Assembly: GCA_024614665.1 (NCBI GenBank)
Contig: GCA_024614665.1_4861.1
Source: a phage
Strand: one strand, 5' to 3'
Length of the DNA: 64,000 nt
The position numbers and the translations under genes are program-made. The notes under the pieces are model-generated. The model made no database searches and was not told the origin of the DNA. It saw nothing but the letters and a program-made list of their open reading frames with translations. The stretch's first letter is position 1; each line of letters starts with the position of its first letter. This document shows positions 3,149-54,906 of the stretch, in pieces.

Positions 3149-5890
3149 ATGGAAGATATTAGTAAATTAACGGGCGACCCCGCGGTAGCTGCCATACTGC
3201 GTAAGTCCACGAGCCCGTCGGCTCAGCAGCAACGCGGTAAGCGTGAAGATGGCGGTGTTACACCAACCCGTACAGAACTCACAGGTATCGCGAGTAGCCG
3301 CATTCGCACCGTTAAAAATGCCGAACGTATCTTTGATGCGCTCCCTGAGTTAGAGGTCATTGTTACCATCGCGACCTCCTCGCTCCTGTCCACAAAAGAT
3401 TTGATTAACACCACGCTGATTTACGACAACGTGGCGGATATCCCGATCGACCTGCGTCAACAGTTGTTAGAACCCGTGCGTGATTTCCATGACCACACGC
3501 GCCAGTTGCCCAACAAACTGTATCAGTGGATTTACGATGCACTGAAATCCAAAGGTGCGAGCCCAGTGTTGCTGATTTCAGATACCGGATTCGATGAACT
3601 CTTCGGCTTAAAGCCGTCTGTTGCAACCGAATCACTGCGCCGGAGCCAATCTGACTTCTTTGAACGTCAGTTGGGTATTCTAGGCAAGATTGGCGGTGAG
3701 AACAAACCGAAGGTTGGTGTAGAAAGTATTCTGGGCCGTGCACGTGGCGCTGACAAGCCCACCAAGCCACAAACCATTAAACTTAACTTTGCATCAGCCC
3801 CTAACAGTCCGTTTAAAGCAGACGGTATGTTAGCTTCCCTGGATATCGTTATCACCGACAACCCGCGTATTACCCTGTTACCAGAGGCTTATCGCCGTGT
3901 GGCACAGGAGAATGCTCGTACCGGCCTGTTCGGGCAGTTAGAGCAGTACGCATATGAACAACCTTCTACACCGACAGGTGCGTCAGCGTATAACGCTGAC
4001 CAGTTCACCGACAGCGAACAAGAGAAGGCAAAACTCGGTTTAATCAACATTGGCGACCTCAACGAAGCGTACCAGAAAACGCCTGAGCAAAAGCTTTACG
4101 GCGAAGTACCGAAGATGAGTTTCTCCGATGCTAACAAAATCGAATACACGGAACGATTACTGCCAGCAGAGTCCACACTCCCGCTCGTTATCGGCGACGA
4201 TGTTCGTAACCCCATAGGTTATCTGGCCATCGTTGACGAAATGGGTAACTTCATTAACTCGCGCTCCACACTTTACGGTGATGCGAACTTCATGAACTAC
4301 CTGAACAACGACGGTATGGTGGATTCAACAATCAACCGTGCAAATCTGGGGATGGGCAACACAACCCGAATCACACCAGACATTGCTAACCGCTTAACAG
4401 CGCGTTATGGTGAGATTGCTGAAGATCAGCTGACAAAAGCGTTGGGTGAGGCGTTGGGGGGTGCTGAGATTAGCATGACGGTAACCGAAACGTTCAGCCG
4501 TATCATGTTAGCGCGCCATCTGGCAAAACGTCATACGCAGGTTATTTATATTCCTGCGGAAAACCTTTGCTACTTCGCCACGGACTTTGATGAAGATGGC
4601 ATCGGTGTATCTATTACCGAACGTTCGTTCGTTATCTCTACTGTCCGTATGGCACTGTTGTTCGCTACCATGAACTCTGCGGTGTTAAACTCTGCGCGTC
4701 ACATGCAGTACGACATTGAGTTGGCACCAGATGACATGAACGGTCAGAAAACAATTGACCAGTTGAAAACAGACATCATGAACTCCTATAACCGTCGTCA
4801 ACCGATGTGGGGGGACATGAACGACACCTGGGCAATGACGACAAACGCAGGTATTGCGTTCAACGTTATCGGTAACGACTACTACGGTAGTACCAAAGTG
4901 TCTGTGTCGGATACCACGCCGGATTATAAATATCCGGATAAGGATTTCGACGAAGGTCTGTTACGCCGTACTTGCCATATCGCTGGTGTTGACCCTGACC
5001 TGGTAATGACCCCGGAGAACATCGAATTCGCTTCACAGATTTTCTCTAAATCGTTGCTGGTCACGCAACAAGTTGTTAAGAAGCAAGAGATTCTCTCTAA
5101 GCCACTGACGCGTTATGTAGTCAATGGGATGTTGGCCTCCCCGTCGTTACAATCAGCGATGATTAAAATCATTGCAGAGTATATCAATGCTAACGGCAAT
5201 GGGATGACTACTGACCAGGTTACGAAAAAGGTCTCTGAGTATCTGGCTGCCTTCATCAACGGTATGAAAGTAACCTTACCACCACCAGACACCTCAGCAG
5301 CAGCTTCGCAGATGGAGTTGTTCGATAAACGTACTGAGTTCTTTGAGAAGCTGGCTGATCTGGTTGTAACGGATGACATTGCTGCGCAACTTCAGCAGGA
5401 AGGCATCTCGATGGACCCGAACGATCTGAAGACGATGATCAAATCCTTCTATACGCGCAACTGGCTGCGTAAACAAGGCATTGAAACCGACTTCTTCGAT
5501 CTGGTTTACGACGATAAATCTCGTCAAGACAACATTACCATGATGACTGATGAAGCGATGGCTGCTTCGAAGACGCTGATTCAACTGGCGAAACGCTTTA
5601 CAGGTCGTCTGGAAACGTTGGCGAAAAATGCTGACCTTGACCCTAACGAATCTGCTGGCGGATTCAGTGGTGGTTTTGATGCGGGCGGTGACACCGGTGG
5701 CGGTGAAGGAGATCTCGGTGGTGGGGGTGACGATGATTTAGACCTCGATCTCGATACGGATGACGGAACCGACGGGGATAGTACAGGGGAAACGACTGAG
5801 TCGACCGAAACCACGGATACAACCACCGAGGGAACGGAAGGCACAGAAGACGAAGGGACTACCGACGACAACCCAGACAACGTCCTCTAA
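3149..5890 (+). CDS. hypothetical protein (913 aa) with acidic Gly/Asp/Thr-rich C-terminal tail
   Basis: ATG with GGAGA about 9 nt upstream; ORF ends immediately before a canonical intrinsic terminator. Confidence 0.65.
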   Translation: MEDISKLTGDPAVAAILRKSTSPSAQQQRGKREDGGVTPTRTELTGIASSRIRTVKNAERIFDALPELEVIVTIATSSLLSTKDLINTTLIYDNVADIPIDLRQQLLEPVRDFHDHTRQLPNKLYQWIYDALKSKGASPVLLISDTGFDELFGLKPSVATESLRRSQSDFFERQLGILGKIGGENKPKVGVESILGRARGADKPTKPQTIKLNFASAPNSPFKADGMLASLDIVITDNPRITLLPEAYRRVAQENARTGLFGQLEQYAYEQPSTPTGASAYNADQFTDSEQEKAKLGLINIGDLNEAYQKTPEQKLYGEVPKMSFSDANKIEYTERLLPAESTLPLVIGDDVRNPIGYLAIVDEMGNFINSRSTLYGDANFMNYLNNDGMVDSTINRANLGMGNTTRITPDIANRLTARYGEIAEDQLTKALGEALGGAEISMTVTETFSRIMLARHLAKRHTQVIYIPAENLCYFATDFDEDGIGVSITERSFVISTVRMALLFATMNSAVLNSARHMQYDIELAPDDMNGQKTIDQLKTDIMNSYNRRQPMWGDMNDTWAMTTNAGIAFNVIGNDYYGSTKVSVSDTTPDYKYPDKDFDEGLLRRTCHIAGVDPDLVMTPENIEFASQIFSKSLLVTQQVVKKQEILSKPLTRYVVNGMLASPSLQSAMIKIIAEYINANGNGMTTDQVTKKVSEYLAAFINGMKVTLPPPDTSAAASQMELFDKRTEFFEKLADLVVTDDIAAQLQQEGISMDPNDLKTMIKSFYTRNWLRKQGIETDFFDLVYDDKSRQDNITMMTDEAMAASKTLIQLAKRFTGRLETLAKNADLDPNESAGGFSGGFDAGGDTGGGEGDLGGGGDDDLDLDLDTDDGTDGDSTGETTESTETTDTTTEGTEGTEDEGTTDDNPDNVL

Positions 5891-5955
5891 ACAAAAAAAA
5901 GAAAAAGAAATAAGGTTTACCTCTCCCTTCGGGGAGAGGTACCTTTTCTTTTTTT
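5891..5955. terminator. bidirectional intrinsic terminator
   Basis: A-tract (5891-5910), stem acctctccc/gggagaggt with TTCG loop (about 5918-5941), T-tract (5943-5955); between convergent genes. Confidence 0.7.
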
Positions 5956-6256
5956 AATCTTCTGTAGCAGCTTTAGGTTTATTAACCAGTTCGTCGAGCA
6001 TGATACCAATCGCCAGAGGGTCGTTCTGGAAAGGTTCTAGCTTTTCCAATACCTTTGTATCCTTTGCTGCTTTTAACGCCTTCAGGAGGCCTTTACGGGC
6101 GTTATAGAAGATTTGCCAGCGACGCCCATGACTGATCGCGGTTTTGGCTTTGTGGAAGTCGGCTAAGAAAGCTTCAGTCGCTTTGTTTTCAGGTAACTCA
6201 AAGCGAAAACGCACACTACGCTCAAAATCCATGTTGACAACAATGAACTTTACCAT
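5954..6256 (-). CDS. hypothetical protein (100 aa)
   Basis: ORF track; ATG 6256 with GAGGT RBS. Confidence 0.5.
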   Translation of the reverse strand: MVKFIVVNMDFERSVRFRFELPENKATEAFLADFHKAKTAISHGRRWQIFYNARKGLLKALKAAKDTKVLEKLEPFQNDPLAIGIMLDELVNKPKAATED

Positions 6257-6268
6257 GCTCGAACCTCA

Positions 6269-6287
6269 TTATAGAGCTACTCTATAA
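6269..6287. repeat. perfect inverted repeat TTATAGAG-cta-CTCTATAA
   Basis: 8-bp arms, 3-bp spacer, in the 34-bp gap upstream of gene 5954..6256; half-site recurs near 19081-19132. Confidence 0.5.
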
Positions 6288-6290
6288 TAA

Positions 6291-6557
6291 TTACGCCAGT
6301 GTAATGTGGTACTTATCAATGTCAGGGAATCGCTCTTTGATCATCCCGCAGAACATATCTAGCACCGGATCAGTTTTTGCGGCCTTCTCCATCTCAGGAA
6401 AAACGCTACGCAGTGGCACGCCAGGGTTCTGCCCTGCCGTTTTCTTAAGCTCTTCTTTATACTTTGCCAACAGAGATTTAACCCCAGCTGTCTTCGGGAA
6501 GCCACACCCTGCGACCCCATCGTTTTCAAAATAGATTACTGCTTCAACACTAGACAT
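6291..6557 (-). CDS. hypothetical protein (88 aa)
   Basis: ATG at 6557 preceded by AAGGAG; track ORF extends to 6575. Confidence 0.5.
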   Translation of the reverse strand: MSSVEAVIYFENDGVAGCGFPKTAGVKSLLAKYKEELKKTAGQNPGVPLRSVFPEMEKAAKTDPVLDMFCGMIKERFPDIDKYHITLA

Positions 6558-6571
6558 TTTAATACTCCTTT

Positions 6572-6615
6572 TCATGATAAAATAAAAAATAATAATAGGA
6601 GACCCGAAGGTCTCC
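6572..6615 (-). terminator. intrinsic terminator (minus strand)
   Basis: Stem ggagacc/ggtctcc with CGAA loop (UUCG in minus RNA), then A-tract on plus strand = U-tract in transcript; follows stop of gene 6623..8299. Confidence 0.6.
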
Positions 6616-6622
6616 GTATTAC

Positions 6623-8299
6623 TTAGTACAACACTGGTGCAGTTTTCTCACCATTGCTCAGAAGCAAGTAAGTGTGCTGCGGCAGCTGCATCAATACAAT
6701 TGCATGTGGCACGTTTTCCTGTACTGCTTCGTAGATAGACACAACCGGGTCTGCGGTATTGCCCAGAGACGCTACCGTAACTACGTCGTGTTTATCAACA
6801 GAATGGTACATGCCTGGAATCACGATGGTGAACTGGCTCTGAATCAGATTAACCACCTTGCCAGAATCGCTCAGCTTGATAGTCAGTTTGCGCAGAGAGT
6901 TTGCTACCATCAGGAACAGGTCACGGAACCAGTCTTCATATTCACTTACGCCGTTGTCGCCAGCGGTTGCTGTGAACAGATCTTTTACGAAGAAATCAAT
7001 ATCGCTGATTTTCCGTTCGAAATCGATAGCTTTGAACTTCGGCACATCTTTACCACGCTTAGTGCCCAGCGACAGCGCGTTGTGTACCAGGAAAGTGATA
7101 TTCGCCAGGTACGCATTAGCAAAGCGAGAAATTTCACTGATAACCACTTCTGCTTCGCTGCTGTTCGCAATCGCATATTCGTGCAGTTCTTTCGTGTTCT
7201 TACGCAGTTCATCGATCGTGCGTTTCACCTTAGCCATGATAGTTTCAACATCTTCTACCAACGCCAAGTTGTCGAGATCGGATTTCAGTGCGTCGTGCTT
7301 AGCAACGAATTGTTTCATGCGTTCGCACATGTCAGTGTTAACACCGACCAGATACGCGCGATAGCTATCCCGTGCACGCACAATCAGGTCAGCCCCGTCG
7401 TAGAAAACAACCTCTTCATTACCGTTAAAGATATCTTGCAACGGTGTAGCCCAATCACGCGTTTCCGCGTAAACAGATTGCTTAATGCGACTGTTAGCTT
7501 CCTTCGCTGGAATCGACATTTTAAGCTCGGGGGTTTTCAGCTCGTGAAGTGCGTAGTCTTCCATCAAATCAATCTCCTGCAGAATGTTGTTAATTGGGCC
7601 ATTGGTAGTGTCCTTCTCGGTTTCTTCTGTTGCGCCGAGTGGGGAAAGCACTGGGTTATTAACTGTAGCGTTAGACACCGGCATTGGTTGTACAGGCACC
7701 TGTGCTGGTTCAGGCTGGGGCTGTTGTGCTGTGGCTGGGACTACTTGCGCCGGTTGTGGGTTCAGGATAGGATCACTAACCAGGTTAAGACCTGCACCGC
7801 CAGCAATCACGGTTAGTGCCGCATCTGTGTTACCAATCTTAACACCGCCGGATGGCGCAGAAGACATGGTCAGGCCATCAGTAACACGGACACCGCCAGA
7901 ACTGTTACCGCCCAGTAACCCGCCTGCGTTGCTACCACCACCTAAACCACCACTGCCACCCAAACCGCCGGACTGCTGAGAACGAATTTCGGCAAGAATC
8001 TTACCGACTTGTTCCCAAGCATTAACCAGTTTGGTGTGACGATCGTCGTTATACGCGTCGCCCGCGTTATGCACCTGCTGATAGGCAGCTGCTTTATACG
8101 CGTCGACCGCATATGCGATAACCTGTGCTTCACTACCCCCTTTGGATGCTGCCCATGCCGCAACATACGTCGCAATCTTTAACGCCTGATCTGGCGGAAT
8201 GCTACGACTACGCATCACGTTATTCAACTGCGACAGTACCGCGTCCTGATCGAGGTGTTTAACGATGACGTTTTTGATTTGTTCAACAGTAATGCTCAT
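6623..8299 (-). CDS. hypothetical protein (558 aa) with internal Gly-rich and Pro/Gln-rich linker
   Basis: ORF track; ATG with GGAG RBS; low-complexity stretch SGGLGGSGGLGGGSNAGG. Confidence 0.6.
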   Translation of the reverse strand: MSITVEQIKNVIVKHLDQDAVLSQLNNVMRSRSIPPDQALKIATYVAAWAASKGGSEAQVIAYAVDAYKAAAYQQVHNAGDAYNDDRHTKLVNAWEQVGKILAEIRSQQSGGLGGSGGLGGGSNAGGLLGGNSSGGVRVTDGLTMSSAPSGGVKIGNTDAALTVIAGGAGLNLVSDPILNPQPAQVVPATAQQPQPEPAQVPVQPMPVSNATVNNPVLSPLGATEETEKDTTNGPINNILQEIDLMEDYALHELKTPELKMSIPAKEANSRIKQSVYAETRDWATPLQDIFNGNEEVVFYDGADLIVRARDSYRAYLVGVNTDMCERMKQFVAKHDALKSDLDNLALVEDVETIMAKVKRTIDELRKNTKELHEYAIANSSEAEVVISEISRFANAYLANITFLVHNALSLGTKRGKDVPKFKAIDFERKISDIDFFVKDLFTATAGDNGVSEYEDWFRDLFLMVANSLRKLTIKLSDSGKVVNLIQSQFTIVIPGMYHSVDKHDVVTVASLGNTADPVVSIYEAVQENVPHAIVLMQLPQHTYLLLSNGEKTAPVLY

Positions 8300-8330
8300 T
8301 GTAAATAATACTCCTTAAGAGATGTAATAA

Positions 8331-10109
8331 TTAGCGGCCGATTTTAGCAATGTCTTCTTCGGTCGGTCTGATGTACGGGTCCAGTTTAGGATTCCGCATC
8401 ATTACCAAACTTGGGTTGGTCTTCATGTACGGGTTGAGGATGTTTGCCTTAAACGGTGCCGACTTAGGAATATAGTAGACGTTACCGCATTCCAGATGCG
8501 ACGCGGATGCGTGCTTAGTACGGTCGTTCAAGTTAACGGTCTTGCCTCCTTTCTTCGAACGCTTAGCATCGGTTTCGGTTTGACCGATGGCGTGCGTAGA
8601 CACTGCCAATACCATTGATTCTGTAGAGGCATTGAAGAAACTGATACCGCCGTTGCTCGTAATGGTGCGCATCACCAGATTGAGCACGATCTGTTTGTTC
8701 AGTGCGTCTCGAATAGACTTCGCCGCTGTCTCTGGAGTCCGATGTTCCAACTGCCCCAGCTTCCAACGTATTTTCGAGATCGTTGTGGTAAAGCCACGTT
8801 GACCCAACAGTAGGTAATCGGTTACCGTGAGACGTTTTCCGTACATAGACGGAATATCATCTTGCTTGGTAAGTCGAGTGCGTACCATCAGCTGCGTGGT
8901 ATACCAGAGGAAATCAAACATATCCAAATCATCAGGGATGGACGGATCGTTTGCCATCAGCTCACCACGGAAGGTGCTGTTGACATAGCGTTCACATTCC
9001 TGGAAGTGGCTGTCCATACTGCGACTCAGTTCGATATCCGAAGGCTTCAGTCCGCGAATACTGCGGCCCAACACTTCACGCCAAGACGCTGCAGAGTTGA
9101 GGTTTGCAATATCTTCGTCCATTGCCATTTCATTAATCTGTGTAAACAGCCCCGGTAGTGTTGGTGCACGACCGTTCTTACTGTTCTGTTTACCTGCGTA
9201 GTAGTGCGCTGCTTTGAAGAACGCAGCAGTCGCTACCAGCAACAGATGTTCGTTTTGATCCCAACGCCCTGCATCGGTGTTAGGCATATCTTCACGTTTA
9301 ACCAACAATACGTACTGGATGGTCTTCGCGAGTTGTGGCTCACCAGATTGAATCACCACATACTTCGTTAAGTCCACATCACGCACTTTAATCGCTGGCC
9401 AAATCGCCACATCAACGCCCGCATAACGCTTCACGGCTTGTTTAAAGCCATAACGCCCAAAGAGCCAATACATCAGTGGCTTCTCATCTGTGTCGTGTCC
9501 AATCTGTCCAGTGGAGACAAACAGATTCGATGTACCCGGCAAGAACAGCTGCTCAGGGCGACCATTCACCAGAATCTTCGTTGGTTTCTTACAGAACTTG
9601 ATAGACACCTTGCGAGTGAAGTCAAAGTTAATAAAGATACCGCCGTGCTCACGACATATACCAGGTTGATGGATTACAGGTGCTACGTGGTACGTTGTAC
9701 CATAGTAGTTCATTAAGCCGCCACGACGAATAAACGGCAGGCTCATTGGTCGTTGCACCGGGCGAGGATCACCTGGAACTCGGAACGAGGCCATTACCAT
9801 ATACGTGTCAGTGGATGAGATGTTAATAATTGACCGGCCACGATTATTTCGTGAATTGTTATCCGACTTCGATAACTTAAAGATAAAAGCTTCAAACGGC
9901 GACATTTGGCGACAACCTAATACCGTTAACCCTTCTGGTAATTTCGGGTTATCGATTTCATCATACGTCAACTCACGACGTAGAATGGTTGCCACACGAT
10001 CATGTATCCCATCTTTAGCTTGTGTGTACCCAACTCCTTCTGCAATTGCACGATTAAAAGGCACTATTTCGCCTGCCTCTTTAATCTTCCTAATCGCATC
10101 TTTAAACAC
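8331..10109 (-). CDS. hypothetical protein (592 aa)
   Basis: Long uninterrupted ORF on the dominant coding strand. Confidence 0.6.
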   Translation of the reverse strand: MFKDAIRKIKEAGEIVPFNRAIAEGVGYTQAKDGIHDRVATILRRELTYDEIDNPKLPEGLTVLGCRQMSPFEAFIFKLSKSDNNSRNNRGRSIINISSTDTYMVMASFRVPGDPRPVQRPMSLPFIRRGGLMNYYGTTYHVAPVIHQPGICREHGGIFINFDFTRKVSIKFCKKPTKILVNGRPEQLFLPGTSNLFVSTGQIGHDTDEKPLMYWLFGRYGFKQAVKRYAGVDVAIWPAIKVRDVDLTKYVVIQSGEPQLAKTIQYVLLVKREDMPNTDAGRWDQNEHLLLVATAAFFKAAHYYAGKQNSKNGRAPTLPGLFTQINEMAMDEDIANLNSAASWREVLGRSIRGLKPSDIELSRSMDSHFQECERYVNSTFRGELMANDPSIPDDLDMFDFLWYTTQLMVRTRLTKQDDIPSMYGKRLTVTDYLLLGQRGFTTTISKIRWKLGQLEHRTPETAAKSIRDALNKQIVLNLVMRTITSNGGISFFNASTESMVLAVSTHAIGQTETDAKRSKKGGKTVNLNDRTKHASASHLECGNVYYIPKSAPFKANILNPYMKTNPSLVMMRNPKLDPYIRPTEEDIAKIGR

Positions 10110-11125: not shown

Positions 11126-11164
11126 TGAGCATCCCAGTAATAATACCAAAAGAATTATTCACGT

Positions 11165-11179
11165 AGATAATATCTATCT
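11165..11179 (-). promoter_or_regulatory. promoter-like 15-bp element, type A (plus strand AGATAATATCTATCT)
   Basis: Exact 15-mer shared by 5 sites; about 40 nt upstream of ATG 11125. Confidence 0.5.
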
Positions 11180-11230
11180 CAGATTACTTTGGGCACGGGT
11201 TCATACCCAGTGCCCGTAACGTAAAAAACT

Positions 11231-11929: not shown

Positions 11930-11969
11930 TACTGTCTCCTTAAGTTAAAACCGAACGACTCTCTCCCTA

Positions 11970-11984
11970 AGATAATATCTATCT
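11970..11984 (-). promoter_or_regulatory. promoter-like 15-bp element, type A
   Basis: Exact copy AGATAATATCTATCT immediately downstream (minus sense) of a terminator and 41 nt upstream of ATG 11929. Confidence 0.5.
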
Positions 11985-11988
11985 ATAA

Positions 11989-12033
11989 ATTTTTAGAAAA
12001 AAAGAAAAAGCTTACTCCCCGAAGGGAGTAAGC
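11989..12033 (-). terminator. intrinsic terminator (minus strand)
   Basis: Stem cttactccc/gggagtaag, then plus-strand A-tract = U-tract after hairpin in minus transcript; follows stop of gene 12065..14365. Confidence 0.6.
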
Positions 12034-17045: not shown

Positions 17046-17085
17046 GCTCTCTCCTTCGGGAGAGAGCGCCTTTTATTTTCTTTTC
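17046..17085 (+). terminator. intrinsic terminator (plus orientation)
   Basis: Stem gctctctcc/ggagagagc with TTCG loop followed by ttttattttcttttc. Confidence 0.55.
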
Positions 17086-17126
17086 GGAAAATAAATATAA
17101 AACCCTCTTACCCGAAGGTAAGAGGG
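17086..17126 (-). terminator. intrinsic terminator (minus orientation)
   Basis: Stem ccctcttacc/ggtaagaggg with CGAA loop, U/A-rich tract in minus sense; follows stop of gene 17133..17993. Confidence 0.55.
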
Positions 17127-18984: not shown

Positions 18985-19041
18985 GGCAATACTCCTTTAG
19001 ATTAATAGTCGATTGAGTTGATAGATTGTCTTCTATCACCT

Positions 19042-19056
19042 AGGTAATATATATCT
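19042..19056 (-). promoter_or_regulatory. promoter-like 15-bp element, type B (plus strand AGGTAATATATATCT; within 26-bp exact repeat 19036-19061)
   Basis: 26-mer identical to 27539-27564; 13/15 match to type A on the coding strand; 58 nt upstream of ATG 18984. Confidence 0.5.
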
Positions 19057-19080
19057 GAAATTATTTTTATTCAGAGTACA

Positions 19081-19132
19081 CCCTCTATAACGCTCTCAAA
19101 CGCGTTTTGAGAGCTTTTATCACTATAGAGGG
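19081..19132. other. nested inverted repeats (candidate structured RNA or protein-binding site)
   Basis: Outer arms ccctctata/tatagaggg enclose inner hairpin gctctcaaa-cgcgt-tttgagagc; lies in a 242-bp intergenic region. Confidence 0.35.
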
Positions 19133-20024: not shown

Positions 20025-20067
20025 TGCAATATTTTCCTTAAGGTTACTTACGGGTCATACTAGATGA

Positions 20068-21381
20068 CTAAGCTGTAAATTTTTCATCTTTGAGCCAAAG
20101 ACTCAGTTGTGATTGGGTGTTATAGCGTCCTGATGCCATCGTTTGACCGTCGACAGCGGACTGGAACACTTCACCCACCAACGTGCCGTAGCGGGTATAG
20201 ACCCCATACTCGTTGGCAAAAACGTATTTTACTGGCATACCGGGATATAGGATGCCGTGCGTTGAACGGTTCCAGGTTGTTTGCACAATCGTACCCAGAC
20301 CCATCTCCAGTTTAGACCGCTGCGGTTTATCAGTATCACTAAAGTGTTTATCAGGATCGATTGGTGCGTTAACCACGCCGCCTGGATACGCAGCAGGGTC
20401 GGCCTGCGCCACAAACTTATCAGGTGTGGTCATACTGATGTCGCCAGGCGTAAATGAACTACTACGCCCATCCAACACACGTACAGACCCTACCCGGTAA
20501 CCCGTACCGTGGTTAAGCGCGGCCTGGTCACGGTATTCCAAACTACTGGTGTCGCCGCCACAAATCAGATAGATAACATTACCCGCAATATCGGTGGTGC
20601 GGTCAATGTGAGCAGCCTGTTCACGAGGCAGATTATAGATGACCAGTTTAGGCTTCGTTGTGTTATTAAACTTCAACGAGTCCCAAGGTCGATACAGATA
20701 CCATCGTTGTAGGTATTGGAAGACCCCAATACCTTTGCTGTAAACACCGTAATGGTTCTGCAGATAATCAAACACGCTTAAGAAGTCTTCGGAGTCTGGT
20801 ATAACGATGTCCCGATATGCCTGCTGTTCTTCTTCATCGTATTCAATCCCTTTCAACTGCCCCTCTGCAGCCACCCCTTCCGGCAACGTATCCGCCAGTA
20901 TCGAGCGTGCCACTGTTAACCCATCTGTTTCGTGGTAGATGCCGCCCACTTGACGATTACGCAGGAACCACATCGACTCATCCATCAGCTCCAATGTTAC
21001 CAAAGCGATAGATTTCTCATCAGACTGACTCAAGAACATCGTCGGTGTTTCCGCGTTGTGGTCGCGGTTATTTATCACGATGCCGCGGTAGTTAAAGACC
21101 CCCGCGATTTTCTGTCCACGACGCAATAACAGCTTTACCTTCAAATCCCCTTCTGCGGACGACGTGATCATTCGCATGTGGCTGTAGGGTATAGCCAAGG
21201 TGAGATGTGTCAATAAACAGATATCACGCGTAAAGTGACCGGTGTGAATGATAGACAGCATCTTCAACACCGTCACTGGGGCACCGTGTACCGTGAGGAA
21301 TATCCCGTAGTCGATAGCCGGTAACCCCCGAGCATTAGCGATGTGACCGTTCGCCATCTGTTGTAACCGACCAAACGACAT
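20068..21381 (-). CDS. hypothetical protein (437 aa)
   Basis: ORF track; AAGGA RBS region. Confidence 0.55.
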   Translation of the reverse strand: MSFGRLQQMANGHIANARGLPAIDYGIFLTVHGAPVTVLKMLSIIHTGHFTRDICLLTHLTLAIPYSHMRMITSSAEGDLKVKLLLRRGQKIAGVFNYRGIVINNRDHNAETPTMFLSQSDEKSIALVTLELMDESMWFLRNRQVGGIYHETDGLTVARSILADTLPEGVAAEGQLKGIEYDEEEQQAYRDIVIPDSEDFLSVFDYLQNHYGVYSKGIGVFQYLQRWYLYRPWDSLKFNNTTKPKLVIYNLPREQAAHIDRTTDIAGNVIYLICGGDTSSLEYRDQAALNHGTGYRVGSVRVLDGRSSSFTPGDISMTTPDKFVAQADPAAYPGGVVNAPIDPDKHFSDTDKPQRSKLEMGLGTIVQTTWNRSTHGILYPGMPVKYVFANEYGVYTRYGTLVGEVFQSAVDGQTMASGRYNTQSQLSLWLKDEKFTA

Positions 21382-26676: not shown

Positions 26677-26734
26677 TATAAATACTCCTTAAGATTAATG
26701 GTCGATTACATACGGTTTCAGGCTAACGTAATAT

Positions 26735-27496: not shown

Positions 27497-27544
27497 ATTC
27501 CTTAAGTGATAGTCGGTTAAAAGATTACCAATGCAATCTCACCT

Positions 27545-27559
27545 AGGTAATATATATCT
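27545..27559 (-). promoter_or_regulatory. promoter-like 15-bp element, type B (within 26-bp exact repeat 27539-27564)
   Basis: Identical 26-mer to 19036-19061; sits between an upstream terminator and ATG 27496. Confidence 0.5.
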
Positions 27560-27579
27560 GAAATCTTTTCTAATCTGAG

Positions 27580-34231: not shown

Positions 34232-37191
34232 TGACTACGAAAACGTACGACGCATTATCGAAAGACTTGCTACTGATGGCACATAACCCATCAGCAATGC
34301 AGTCGTTAATGCTGAACCAGCTCCAAGACGTGCAGGACGCCGACGGGCAAATCCTGCTACGTGACCCGACCGACCCGGTGGTCTACATGACCGAAGTCGG
34401 AATTACGATGGGCCACACGATTATCCAGGGCGATCGGGACACCATTCCGAAAATGTTCCCCTCTATGGCACAAACTCACGATGATCTGTTCCGCCACATG
34501 TCTGACGTGGATTATGTCGATGTTTTTGCCCAGCCATCACAAGCGACCTTACTGCTGCTTCTAGATGTCGACTCTCTATTAGCGAAGGCGATGCCATTAA
34601 ACGTGGCAGGTATTCGTAAAGTCGTGATTCCACGGGATACCGTCTTTACTGTTTCAGGTTACAACTTTGCCATTCAGTATCCCATCGAAATTCGAGTGCT
34701 GCCGTATGGTACCGTTGATAATCCAGCTTTCCAAGTCTTGTGGATTACCGAAACCCAGTCACCGATATCGCCCGTAACCACTAACGCGTTGGACTGGGAA
34801 CTGACAAGTGTTCCCAGCACACCGTCGCAGATACTGGCTATCCGTATTCCGGTGATGCAGTACAGTGTAAAGGACGAGAACGATACGTTGTTGGGGCAGA
34901 ACACGTTTGTGATGACGCGCACGTTCACCAACAAGTTCTTCTACGCACGGGTGTGGAATAAACCGTCCAATTCAAACACCTGGACAGAAATCCATCACAC
35001 GCACAGTCGTGACGTTTACGATCCAAACACACCTACGGCGCTGATTCAAGTCGTTAACCAGTCCATTCGCTGTACGATACCGTCTATCTACATGGCGAAG
35101 AACCTGGTAAGTGGTGAAATCCGCATGGACGTATATACGACCATCGGGCCACTCGACCTCGACGTTTCTGCATTTCCGGCGGACGAGTACACCTTCTCAT
35201 TGCGCGACTTGAACGGTGAATACGATGCGGGATACATCAACCCGTTGAAATCATTCTCCATCAAAATGTTGGTTGCGGAAGAAGGCAGTTACGCCACTGG
35301 GGGGCGTACACAACTTTCGTTTGATGAGTTGCGTGACCGTGTGGTAAACAATGCAGTGGGGATTCGCAAACTGCCAGTAACAGAGAAACAGTTAGAAGCC
35401 ACAGTATCGGATTACGGCCTGACCTTGTCCAAGCCGAACGATTACGTAACTGGGCGTACTTACTTCCTGACTGCGCCGATGCCGGAGTCCACGTTATCTA
35501 AAGTGAGTTCCCCTATCGGGACCATCACCGCCCCGCTGTACTTTAGCTGGGATGAACTGGTGAAACTGCCGACGGTCCGTATTAACGGCAACCGTTTGAC
35601 GATTGAGCCGGATACGCTGTATCGCTTTACGGATACCAGTCTGCAAATCGATGCGGAGATGACCATCCTTGCGAAGACCATGCGTAAAGAAGATTTGGTT
35701 AACGCGGGTAACACTAACCGTTACCTGTTCACACCGTTCCATTACGTGGTGGACATTAACAACAAATCTTGCGATGTTCGTATTTACCAACTCGATAAAC
35801 CGCAGTTGAACTCAAAACGTTTCGTTAGCACCAACGTGACAACGGAGCTGAGTGTTGTCACTGCAGATTATCAGATTGAGAAAACGAGCGAAGGTTATAT
35901 CCTGCGCACTGTGACTAAGTCAGAACCGCCATACCAGGCGTTAAGTGATGACCAAGTCTTTGCGCAGATTTCCTTCTCGCCACGCAACGCAGACGGTAAG
36001 TTGGCGTACATCAACGGCACCTTAGTGGGTCGTCAAGGTTCGGAGCGTGTATGGGAATTCTTGTTGAAAACCAATCTCGATGTTGACCGTAACGATGAGC
36101 TGATTATCAACAACACCCGAATCACCACCGAAGTGGATGTGGACACACCTGCACCGTTGTTAACCGAGTATAACGTGTTCTACGGCTGTACGGGTTACTA
36201 CCCCGGTAATTACGAACGCGCTGAAATGGATACAATGATTGTACCGCCTGCGCGCGATGGTATTGGGATTACTCATGAGATTTTCAAAATCGAGCTGGGT
36301 AAAGCCATGTCCTATTACTGGCGAAAAGCACGTGCAGTAACGGACAGCATCAACTACGAATACTACCAGAAGGACGTTCTGGCGTATTGGGAAAAGGATG
36401 TTATTAAAACCAAAGAAGATGGTGTAACGCCTGAGTATACGTACGACCCTAATGCTGTTCCACCGTTGCAAATCACGTACCTGCATCGCAAAGGCGATCC
36501 GAAAATAGACCCGGTCACCGGTGAACAAGAAATCGCACACCACGTTGGGGAGCAAATCTTCGACGGGAACGGTCAGCCTATTATTGCGAAACCGCGCAGT
36601 ATTAAGTTCCGTAGTGAAATGGCTGTCTTTGATGCCCGTTATAAGTTCGCAACCTCGAAGGCGGTTAAAACGTACCTTGATAGCGTAATTGACAACATCA
36701 TCAACTATGTTACGGTGGTACTGCCTAATCTGAAACCGCTGCTGTTGGAGCAAACTGAAGGCTTCTTTGTTCCTATCACCACGATGGGTTATATCGACGT
36801 ACGTACCGAAGACGGGGTTGTGTCACCACTGCCTGCTGAAAACCAGTTCACTGTCAAATATTACCTCACGGCAGCGAACCGCGCAAACAGCGAGCTTCTG
36901 GCACAAATCCGGAAACGGACTTCGCAAGTCATTAACGATTATCTGTCAACACATCTGACCGTTTCAGCAACCGAGATTGGTAATGCGCTACGCACCACGC
37001 TTAACGATGCCATTATCGGTGTTGAACTCGACGACATGGGGCCAGATAAAGACCTGCGACTGTTCACTGTCATTACCGAAGCGGCACGTGCCACGATTGG
37101 TAAGAAGCTCGATATCGAAGCCAATGGCGACATCGGTTTGAAAGATGACATCGTACTGTCGTACAACCGTCACGATACCGAAAAAGAATAA
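34231..37191 (+). CDS. hypothetical protein (986 aa)
   Basis: Long ORF translationally coupled to upstream gene; ends at a canonical terminator. Confidence 0.6.
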   Translation: MTTKTYDALSKDLLLMAHNPSAMQSLMLNQLQDVQDADGQILLRDPTDPVVYMTEVGITMGHTIIQGDRDTIPKMFPSMAQTHDDLFRHMSDVDYVDVFAQPSQATLLLLLDVDSLLAKAMPLNVAGIRKVVIPRDTVFTVSGYNFAIQYPIEIRVLPYGTVDNPAFQVLWITETQSPISPVTTNALDWELTSVPSTPSQILAIRIPVMQYSVKDENDTLLGQNTFVMTRTFTNKFFYARVWNKPSNSNTWTEIHHTHSRDVYDPNTPTALIQVVNQSIRCTIPSIYMAKNLVSGEIRMDVYTTIGPLDLDVSAFPADEYTFSLRDLNGEYDAGYINPLKSFSIKMLVAEEGSYATGGRTQLSFDELRDRVVNNAVGIRKLPVTEKQLEATVSDYGLTLSKPNDYVTGRTYFLTAPMPESTLSKVSSPIGTITAPLYFSWDELVKLPTVRINGNRLTIEPDTLYRFTDTSLQIDAEMTILAKTMRKEDLVNAGNTNRYLFTPFHYVVDINNKSCDVRIYQLDKPQLNSKRFVSTNVTTELSVVTADYQIEKTSEGYILRTVTKSEPPYQALSDDQVFAQISFSPRNADGKLAYINGTLVGRQGSERVWEFLLKTNLDVDRNDELIINNTRITTEVDVDTPAPLLTEYNVFYGCTGYYPGNYERAEMDTMIVPPARDGIGITHEIFKIELGKAMSYYWRKARAVTDSINYEYYQKDVLAYWEKDVIKTKEDGVTPEYTYDPNAVPPLQITYLHRKGDPKIDPVTGEQEIAHHVGEQIFDGNGQPIIAKPRSIKFRSEMAVFDARYKFATSKAVKTYLDSVIDNIINYVTVVLPNLKPLLLEQTEGFFVPITTMGYIDVRTEDGVVSPLPAENQFTVKYYLTAANRANSELLAQIRKRTSQVINDYLSTHLTVSATEIGNALRTTLNDAIIGVELDDMGPDKDLRLFTVITEAARATIGKKLDIEANGDIGLKDDIVLSYNRHDTEKE

Positions 37192-54840: not shown

Positions 54841-54870
54841 TCGTAAATGCTCCTTTTGGTTACCTCGGTA

Positions 54871-54885
54871 AGATAATATCTATCT
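54871..54885 (-). promoter_or_regulatory. promoter-like 15-bp element, type A
   Basis: Exact AGATAATATCTATCT 31 nt upstream of the beta-like gene ATG (54840); also 22 nt upstream of divergent plus gene 54907. Confidence 0.5.
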
Positions 54886-54906
54886 GTTTTATTTTAAGGA
54901 GAGACG

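Follow-up and report, generated by a model that had tools for sequence, protein, structure and literature searches.

To judge from its conservation across genera, the palindrome that precedes gene 5954..6256 (gp80) is a real, strongly conserved cis-acting control element tied to the start of that gene. It is read here, tentatively, as gp80's own promoter folded into a hairpin beside the ribosome-binding site. Further copies of its half-site in the genome are no more frequent than chance would give.

In a sequence comparison, bases 5000-9000 of the window (the whole 64,000-nt stretch of phage DNA analysed) matched Salmonella phage SPN3US at 99.1% identity; SPN3US is a jumbo phage of 240 kb, related to phiKZ and placed in the genus Seoulvirus. 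The features discussed below are collected in Table 1. The element lies within the 34-nt gap (6257-6290) from the gp79 stop to the ATG of gp80, gp79 being adjacent and on the same strand. Upstream of gp79 lies gp78, an essential, non-virion and suspected regulatory protein (PMC5105663). Among the relatives, the slot of gp79 varies in content by lineage: some have a Sequestin-domain gene there, some have other small genes, and some have nothing at all. In a more distant lineage that was examined, Derbicusvirus CR5, the gp80 gene is absent between the gp78 homologue and the portal gene. The window is rich in terminator hairpins.

Table 1. Coordinates of the gp80 control element, its parts and the neighbouring features of the window.
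Feature	Position	Strand	Remarks
Perfect inverted repeat, 9-bp arms, 3-nt loop	6268..6288	-	ATTATAGAG-TAG-CTCTATAAT on the - strand
Block 1, left arm, TTATTATAG	6282..6290	-	Universally conserved core; proposed initiator-type promoter element (TTATAG/TATAG)
Variable 7-nt centre, AGTAGCT	6275..6281	-	Inner stem pairs and loop
Block 2, right arm and Shine-Dalgarno, CTATAATGAGG	6264..6274	-	GAGG = 6264-6267; CTATAAT = 6274-6268
gp80, 100 aa, controlled gene	5954..6256	-	RefSeq tag ACQ60_gp186; PHROG 10389
gp79, 88 aa	6291..6557	-	TAA stop (6291-6293) directly ahead of block 1
gp78, 558 aa	6623..8299	-	Original SPN3US numbering, PMC5105663
gp77, nvRNAP beta fragment	8331..10109	-	Original SPN3US numbering, PMC5105663
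Portal gene gp81	3149..5890	+	Converges on gp80
Terminator-like GC hairpin and T-run after gp78	6598..6615	-	Terminator scan; upstream limit of the gp79-gp80 unit
Bidirectional terminator-like hairpin, gp80/portal gene interval	5918..5941	.	Hairpin and terminator scans
Nested inverted repeat	19081..19132	.	Only a 7-mer in common; not part of the gp80 element

A previous sequence-only reading had described the palindrome as TTATAGAGCTACTCTATAA at 6269-6287, with 8-bp arms that overlap the ribosome-binding site. The sequence does lie at these positions and the inverted repeat is present, but its perfect arms are one pair longer on each side (9 bp); on the + strand it reads ATTATAGAG-cta-CTCTATAAT. 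On the coding (-) strand the gap reads TAA-TTATTATAG-AGTAGCT-CTATAAT-GAGG-TTCGAGC-ATG, and the element within it, TTATTATAG-AGTAGCT-CTATAATGAGG, ends directly at the GAGG ribosome-binding site of gp80. The perfect stem stops one base ahead of GAGG and abuts it without overlap; the stem extension predicted by RNAfold (U-A, U.G) alone reaches the GA of GAGG. The perfect inverted repeat is unique within the window and within the SPN3US genome. Among the ∼28 perfect hairpins of the window it has the most AT-rich stem, most of the others being GC-rich and terminator-like. A perfect 9-bp hairpin is not rare per se, ∼1.4 being expected per shuffled window; the palindrome is considered non-random because it is conserved across genera, and not because of the rarity of such a hairpin.

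Regions upstream of gp80 were gathered from the SPN3US-like phages, the clade of SPAsTU, pEa_SNUABM_29 and L017, the genus Erskinevirus (phiEaH2, Stratton and Asesino), the metagenomic L019 (66% protein identity) and a metagenomic/IMG-VR group (L013 and L023-L026; 50-55%), together with four sublineages of Machinavirus (Machina/pSal-04, pEa_SNUABM_6, ChrisDB/pEa4/pEa9 and Caitlin). In this collected set, no gp80 orthologue of Seoulvirus, Erskinevirus, Machinavirus or the metagenomic lineages lacks the element upstream, although in Machinavirus block 1 stands alone. TATAG is invariant in 17 of 17 aligned orthologue upstream regions, including those of all the Machinavirus sublineages, and the full block 1 (TTATTATAG) is invariant but for a single T>A change in the SPAsTU clade. 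In the nine distinct non-Machinavirus sequences, which come from four lineage groups, block 2 (CTATA-R-Y-GAGG) shows no variation and stands exactly 7 nt past block 1. TATAG-N7-CTATA is invariant in all nine. The centre varies freely: it appears as AGTAGCT, ACTAGCT, AGACGAT, CTGCCCA or CCGCCCA, constant in length and without compensation. The TTAT flank on the left is almost invariant, whereas the right flank varies (AT, GT, AC or GC).

Such conservation contrasts with the state of neutral positions. Among 11 representative lineages synonymous sites are saturated: where the amino acid is invariant, the third codon position is conserved in none of 11 cases, and over all 34 third positions it is conserved in one. 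Against this background, the cross-genus conservation of the element shows that it is under strong purifying selection. In Machinavirus, block 2 is absent or degenerate and block 1 is kept, partly within the last codons of the upstream gene, and the distance from block 1 to GAGG is extended from 14 nt to 17-24 nt. The retention of block 1 alone in every Machinavirus sublineage argues that it has a function independent of pairing. Moreover, among the nine distinct sequences, none of the 11 helix pairs is altered on both sides (seven of them never vary), and in Asesino, L019 and group C inner helix pairs have disappeared with no restoring change. Given the lack of compensatory changes and these unrepaired losses, conservation acts on the primary sequence.

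The element is also retained in changing surroundings: a terminator hairpin and its T-run may precede it, or else gp79, the Sequestin-domain gene or one of the other small genes. In lineages that lack gp79, the terminator is situated 22-26 nt upstream of the TATAG of block 1; in the three terminator-following lineages the T-run ends 10-14 nt upstream of TATAG, and in these lineages nothing besides the element is conserved between the T-run and the Shine-Dalgarno sequence (SD). Where the Sequestin-domain gene lies upstream, its stop codon is the TAG of the loop.

The occurrence of promoter motifs was surveyed over all SPN3US upstream regions. A quasi-palindromic motif, cAGATAGATATTATCTnnGTGAG, is present in the SPN3US genome in ∼24 copies; it is presumably the promoter of the early vRNAP. 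An early vRNAP promoter can be found bioinformatically in each such phage, and the middle and late promoters of the phiKZ group are said to be unpredictable from sequence (PMC7598289). The upstream regions of SPN3US show a strand bias for TATG (63 versus 32) and GTATG (22 versus 8), a pattern that recalls the late T-3ATG+1 promoter of phiKZ, whose middle promoters carry an AT-rich element near -24 (PMC7598289). A further class, TTT(C)ACG-N14-T(A/G)TG, has 27 matches in the SPN3US genome versus 1.6 in shuffles. Of these matches, 22 are intergenic, on the sense strand and upstream of starts, most of them within ∼80 nt of the start codon and a few several hundred nt away. This class includes a variant that ends in (T/G)TATAG, and it agrees with the late and the AT-rich middle promoters of phiKZ (PMC7598289). 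Upstream of the DNA polymerase gene, TTTTTTCACG-N13-TTATAG is kept in SPN3US, Asesino, ChrisDB and Machina with a varying spacer, and upstream of the 5534 family, TTTTT(C)ACG-N13-16-TATAG-GAGG is kept in SPN3US, SPAsTU, phiEaH2 and Machina. Because it is conserved across genera at these two unrelated genes, TATAG is a conserved, functional promoter-proximal element in these phages, located 0-14 nt ahead of the SD. The TTATAG with which block 1 of the gp80 element closes is the one seen at the DNA polymerase and 5534 promoters.

These comparisons lead to the reading preferred here, in which the palindrome would form a gene-specific expression-control cassette of gp80. Block 1 would be a compact promoter or initiator for the phage's own multisubunit RNA polymerase, and gp80 transcripts would start at or just after its TATAG. 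The right arm (CTATAAT) is the complement of the left arm, fused to GAGG. RNA entering from upstream, be it the gp79 message or terminator read-through, would carry both arms and could fold into a hairpin of 11 pairs (about -12 kcal/mol), whose end lies within GAGG and which would hinder the loading of ribosomes, whereas RNA born at block 1 would lack the 5' arm and be open for translation. The anatomy of the element, its uniqueness in the genome, its conservation pattern and the promoter-proximal conservation of TATAG are shown above; from these we infer that block 1 initiates transcription and that translation is lowered by the hairpin. In lineages with a terminator ahead of gp80, the gene needs a promoter of its own. 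The promoter-proximal place of TATAG at the two other gene families points to the left arm as a promoter element. A promoter role of the left arm had not been considered in the sequence-only reading. The proposal would account for the invariance of the promoter arm, for a partner arm that tracks it without covariation, and for the dropping of the partner alone in Machinavirus.

The predicted hairpin energies range from -12.3 to -15.4 kcal/mol in SPN3US-like phages, L019 and Erskinevirus (-12.5 kcal/mol in the window and -15.4 in phiEaH2), and the fold spans 2-3 nt of GAGG; RNA that starts after block 1 is predicted to have no stable structure. Several observations nevertheless weigh against the promoter-in-hairpin reading. 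TTT(C)ACG was not found 13-14 nt upstream of block 1, and a regex scan of the genome does not return the gp80 site: the window has ATTACA at N12, inside gp79, while the corresponding position holds only a T-run in the terminator-following lineages and GC-rich coding sequence in ChrisDB-type phages. The genome has no further copy of TTATTATAG, whereas a general promoter element would be expected to recur, and as a word TATAG has no upstream strand bias (11 sense versus 10 antisense). The stem abuts the SD and does not bury the SD and AUG as in T4 gene e, the hairpin is missing from the minimum-free-energy fold of group C, and compensatory substitutions are lacking, as described above. Finally, the 5-bp TATAG/CTATA complementarity could stem from a tandem TATAR repeat, because CTATAG is self-complementary. 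Literature searches for transcription start data on SPN3US or its relatives returned none.

An alternative, which we regard as unlikely, is that the palindrome acts purely as an RNA hairpin in a 5' untranslated or intercistronic region, with transcription starting further upstream; it could then tune access to the SD, protect the message from 5'-end-dependent decay, or serve as a processing site. The hairpin is predicted in five of seven lineages, but its shuffle z-score reaches about -2.4 to -2.7 only in the window (-2.4), L019 and phiEaH2, compared with about -1.1 for SPAsTU and for Asesino. The right-arm A-to-G change of Erskinevirus and group C keeps a U.G pair, the stem ends at or inside GAGG, and ChrisDB-type Machinavirus phages have a different hairpin (AUACUC/GAGUAU), which encloses the SD and the AU of AUG. 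Other hairpins near an SD in SPN3US are either GC-rich terminators or 5' leader hairpins, the latter being carried by the early leaders of the same phage, and the gp80 site is the sole AT-rich case found in SPN3US of a hairpin that abuts the SD. However, covariation is missing, the loop and the inner stem are free to vary, the opposite of what is seen in most protein-recognised RNA hairpins, and block 1 remains invariant where its partner has been lost. The structure is also outside the minimum-free-energy fold of group C, and in the terminator-following lineages an upstream promoter would have just 22-26 nt available. Membership in a known RNA family and a covariation-supported helix were both rejected: no Rfam match overlaps 6260-6295, even at E<=10, and 0 of 11 pairs are compensated.

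It is doubtful that the palindrome is instead a DNA operator for a dimeric protein, most simply gp80 itself as an autoregulator, with ATTATAG and CTATAAT as half-sites 7 bp apart; a bound dimer would block the promoter or the passage of RNA polymerase. Both an operator and an RNA hairpin sequestering the ribosome-binding site had been offered in the sequence-only reading. The constant half-site spacing and the free 7-bp centre are indeed the classic signature of an operator, and a unique site that is always linked to gp80 would suit autogenous control. The gp80 protein (a tiny family of unknown function, PHROG 10389, with a pI of 8-9.5) is small and mildly basic, and carries a conserved Arg/Phe-rich beta-hairpin, RSVRFRFELP. 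Yet the arms are unequally constrained, as seen in their flanks, Machinavirus has the left block only with no replacement dyad, and no Pfam domain and no HTH, RHH or other recognisable DNA-binding fold was found in gp80. Its AF2 model has an alpha/beta fold (pLDDT 72), for which an informative structural neighbour was not found. The 14 bp between half-site centres is, in addition, an awkward spacing for a simple symmetric dimer. In favour is, again, the position of gp80 beside gp77 (an nvRNAP subunit) and gp78 (suspected regulatory; PMC5105663).

Similarly improbable is an arrangement of tandem initiators, TATAG and (C)TATAR, at a distance of 13 nt and with GAGG directly after the second. The palindrome would then be largely a by-product of the self-complementarity of CTATAG, and pairing would be of no importance. 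TATAG-GAGG is invariant ahead of the 5534 family in four genera and resembles the TATA(A/G)-Y-GAGG of block 2, which literally contains TATAG in Erskinevirus and group C; furthermore, the 5-bp core (TATAG/CTATA) is the only complementarity conserved in all of the lineages that bear block 2. Three features do not fit: the C before the second TATAR is invariant, as opposed to T or A in the promoter class; the 7-9 perfect pairs of the SPN3US-like, SPAsTU-like and Erskinevirus phages exceed what a direct repeat would yield; and a TTTACG-like element is missing at N13-14 from block 2.

The sequence-only reading had also pointed to the same half-site, CTCTATA/TATAGAG, in the outer arms of the nested repeat at 19 kb. 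The copies are present there (19083-19089 and 19124-19130), but their recurrence is at chance level. The 19-kb repeat sits just upstream of an early-promoter-like motif at 19027-19067, and in SPN3US itself (99% identical to the window) one arm of this repeat differs, reading CTCTAAAG. CTCTATA occurs seven times in the window versus 3.84 ± 1.83 expected. This count was reached in 10 of 100 shuffles, and the arms of the two palindromes account for four of the seven copies. In the whole 240-kb SPN3US genome, TTATAGAG has 10 copies (8.6 ± 2.9 expected), TATAGAG 13 and TTATTATAG one. Overall, searches of the window and the SPN3US genome with CTCTATA, TATAGAG, TTATAGAG, TTATTATAG and TTATTATAGAG (<=2 mismatches) gave counts at or below expectation, and the half-site copies of the SPN3US genome are mostly intragenic with no bias toward gene starts. 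A scan of that genome for ATTATAG-N5-9-CTATAAT (<=3 mismatches) yielded 31 matches versus 42-73 in shuffles, and returned only the gp80 site and low-complexity AT sequence at the genome end. No second site of this kind exists, and the composite element occurs once per genome. The idea of a half-site family, or of a regulon built on it, is thus discarded, random frequency and a lack of bias toward gene starts being what the sequence-only reading had itself named as its refutation.

Several known identities were also considered and rejected. The sequence-only reading was right to discount a terminator: the GC content of the stem is 22%, neither strand has a U-tract (the sequence after the stem is GAGGTTCGAG on the - strand and AATTACGCC on the + strand), and the terminator scan does not call the palindrome, while a real terminator lies just upstream in several lineages. 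As a copy of the early promoter, the gp80 site scores at best -4.6 bits in a matrix comparison, versus 20-39 for the ∼24 genomic copies. The likeness of the group C sequence CACTATAG-TGAGG to the T7/SP6 core promoter was dismissed, the match resting on the palindromic hexamer CTATAG. To our knowledge, no single-subunit polymerase is known in SPN3US-like phages, and none appears in the SPN3US annotation as read. Block 2 contains TATAAT, but there is no -35 partner, and the promoter scan does not call a sigma-70 promoter; such a reading is further disfavoured because a start 7 nt downstream of TATAAT would delete the SD. Transcription in phiKZ is independent of the host RNA polymerase (PMC7598289; PMC11512511), and by analogy a host-type promoter is not expected at the gp80 element. 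A chance feature, or an intrinsic terminator, without any specific role is an extremely improbable reading of the palindrome, despite the hairpins expected in shuffled windows and the abundance of terminator hairpins, and is effectively refuted by the cross-genus conservation over saturated neutral sites.

The 27-nt element is sharply delimited and experimentally tractable, and it is a candidate for promoter-in-hairpin translational discrimination outside the T4 group. The surrounding comparisons lend support to TATAG or T(A/G)TG, with TTTACG at N13-14, as a promoter architecture in Seoulvirus, Erskinevirus and Machinavirus, and flag gp80, a conserved gene beside the nvRNAP genes, as specially controlled. 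There is a small chance that the element represents either a promoter-in-hairpin switch undescribed in Chimalliviridae or gp80 autoregulating through its unique palindrome. In the former case, only RNAs born at the embedded promoter would be translatable in these nucleus-forming jumbo phages; in the latter, gp80 and its palindrome would be the first regulator and operator specific to one gene in these phages. The finding carries modest practical weight: it concerns one gene in one phage clade, with an inferential mechanism.

The element is best filed with phage cis-regulatory elements of known kinds, in a clade for which the literature searches returned no promoter map. In function, its closest parallels may be the short start-site promoters of phiKZ-type nvRNAPs and the T4 genes e (lysozyme), soc, 49 and I-TevI, in which an inhibitory hairpin carries a late promoter in its 5' arm (Uzan & Miller 2010, PMC3014915). 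In T4, as in the proposal for gp80, a short AT-rich promoter motif forms the 5' strand of a hairpin beside the translation initiation region, long upstream transcripts can fold and those started at the motif cannot, and the promoter arm is conserved in sequence, its partner following without covariation. In contrast, the T4 hairpins bury the SD and/or the AUG, while that of gp80 halts at, or 2-3 nt into, the SD; T4 employs the host RNA polymerase with gp55 and TATAAATA, as opposed to the phage's own multisubunit polymerases and a TATAG-type motif; and the gp80 element is known here from sequence alone.

The phiKZ-type nvRNAP promoters (PMC7598289) likewise have a very short start-site motif with an optional T/A-rich upstream part, whereas block 1 has TATAG rather than TATG, lacks TTTACG and carries a genome-unique, invariant TTAT prefix. 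The early motif of SPN3US has the hexamer TATTAT in common with the gp80 site and is also quasi-palindromic, but its AGATAGA and GTGAG parts are absent from the latter. The operators of phage repressors and autoregulators resemble the element in their inverted half-sites, fixed spacing, free centre, single copy and overlap with the control region of an adjacent small gene; they differ in that the gp80 halves are unequally conserved, just one of the halves is present in one genus, and the adjacent gene encodes no recognisable DNA-binding domain. The hairpin promoters of the N4 virion RNA polymerase, with a 5-7 bp stem and a 3-nt loop, are similar as short DNA hairpins upstream of genes in a phage that brings its own polymerase. 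The N4 enzyme, however, is a T7-like single-subunit polymerase that is served by several hairpin promoters with a conserved loop, while the gp80 site has a variable loop, is unique, and belongs to a phage whose polymerases are multisubunit.

The gene gp78 (6623-8299, minus strand) lies directly upstream of the gp79-gp80 unit, a pair of small genes on the same strand. Its product is reported to be an essential non-virion protein, and many virion proteins are no longer made when it is missing (PMC5105663). The protein contains a Gly-rich low-complexity segment, and no relatives were found in PDB or Pfam. Possibly it serves the phage non-virion RNA polymerase encoded beside it as a specificity or regulatory factor.

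The slot between gp78 and gp80 (window 6291-6622) was hypervariable among lineages (orthologous loci L002-L007, L013, L017, L019 and L037-L041). It was occupied by the 88-aa gp79, by a Sequestin-domain (PF21825) protein of 69-76 aa, by unrelated proteins of 74-82 aa or by two small genes, or it was empty. Synteny picks up again exactly at block 1, the conserved left arm of the palindrome before gp80. In terms of predicted structure, the gp80 model matched an 88-aa protein in BFVD, A0A8E7L441 (TM 0.69-0.78, 17% identity), which shares its accession series with the top match of that search, the gp80 homologue A0A8E7L467. The genes gp79 (6291-6557) and gp80 (5954-6256) might be remote paralogues.

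The pentamer TATAG, with which block 1 ends, was ∼2.5-fold rarer in the whole SPN3US genome than in mononucleotide block shuffles, which are uncorrected for TA-dinucleotide depletion or stop-codon avoidance (199 occurrences versus 508 ± 26). Whether or not selection against spurious initiator motifs underlies this rarity, both are possible. In the SPN3US genome (L008-L012), the promoter-like class TTT(C)ACG-N14-T(A/G)TG, one variant of which ends in N13-(T/G)TATAG, gave 27 matches versus 1.6 in shuffles. Its members are usually located directly 3' of a terminator T-run. Both at the DNA polymerase gene and at the SPN3US 5534 gene family, the class is kept across Seoulvirus, Erskinevirus and Machinavirus.

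A separate quasi-palindromic motif, (T)CAGATAGATATTATCTATCTGA / TTTCAGATATATATTACCTAGGTGAGAG, is ∼22 bp long and occurs at ∼24 sites in SPN3US, almost all of them intergenic; both strands score. The phage presumably uses this motif as its early (virion RNA polymerase) promoter. Divergent gaps hold several copies, and a single copy in such a gap could drive both directions.

Promoter-like motifs, leader cassettes and hairpins, by position
Feature	Window	SPN3US	Remarks
Early-type motif	11150-11190, 11955-11995, 19027-19067, 27530-27570, 54856-54896, 58599-58636, 60015-60055		
TTT(C)ACG-N14-T(A/G)TG class	60822-60845 (-), 20056-20079 (-), 11202-11226 (-)		
Leader cassettes	~18985-19030 (-), near 60017, near 26701	upstream of 4501, 65485, 94310, 114059, 223349	
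Inner hairpin of nested repeat	19092-19114		GCTCTCAAA-cgcgt-TTTGAGAGC
GC-rich terminator-like stems	17046-17067, 17103-17126		flank the A/T hairpin
A/T hairpin	17072-17095		9 bp, nearly all A/T; TTTATTTTC-ttttcg-GAAAATAAA

One early-type copy closely adjoins the nested repeat at 19081-19132, whose inner hairpin is followed by TTTTAT on the plus strand. The outer arms of this repeat are ACCCTCTATA/TATAGAGGGT; SPN3US, 99% identical, has CCCTCTAAAG as one of them, so that these arms do not always remain fully complementary. Three further hairpins stand in a row at 17046-17126. The gene for the large terminase subunit is preceded by a GC-rich 10-bp hairpin, CCTCCACCCC-ttcg-GGGGTGGAGG (L012 ~34327-34362; SPN3US 234.3 kb), which carries an SD-like GGAGG within its 3' arm. 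Next comes TATGGAGATTGTATG, a TATG initiator-like motif located after this hairpin and before the start codon.

The leaders downstream of the early-type motif contain a short hairpin, whose arms vary among copies while their complementarity is kept (AGATGAG/CTCATCT, TGATAGA/TCTATCA and GAGAGTT/AACTCTC, among others). The hairpin is followed by a conserved box, AATCGACTATTA..TAAGGAG, the AATCGAC of which occurred nine times in the sense and never in the antisense orientation. These hairpin and box units are repeated regulatory cassettes, and they are reminiscent of the 'PeSL' units of T4.
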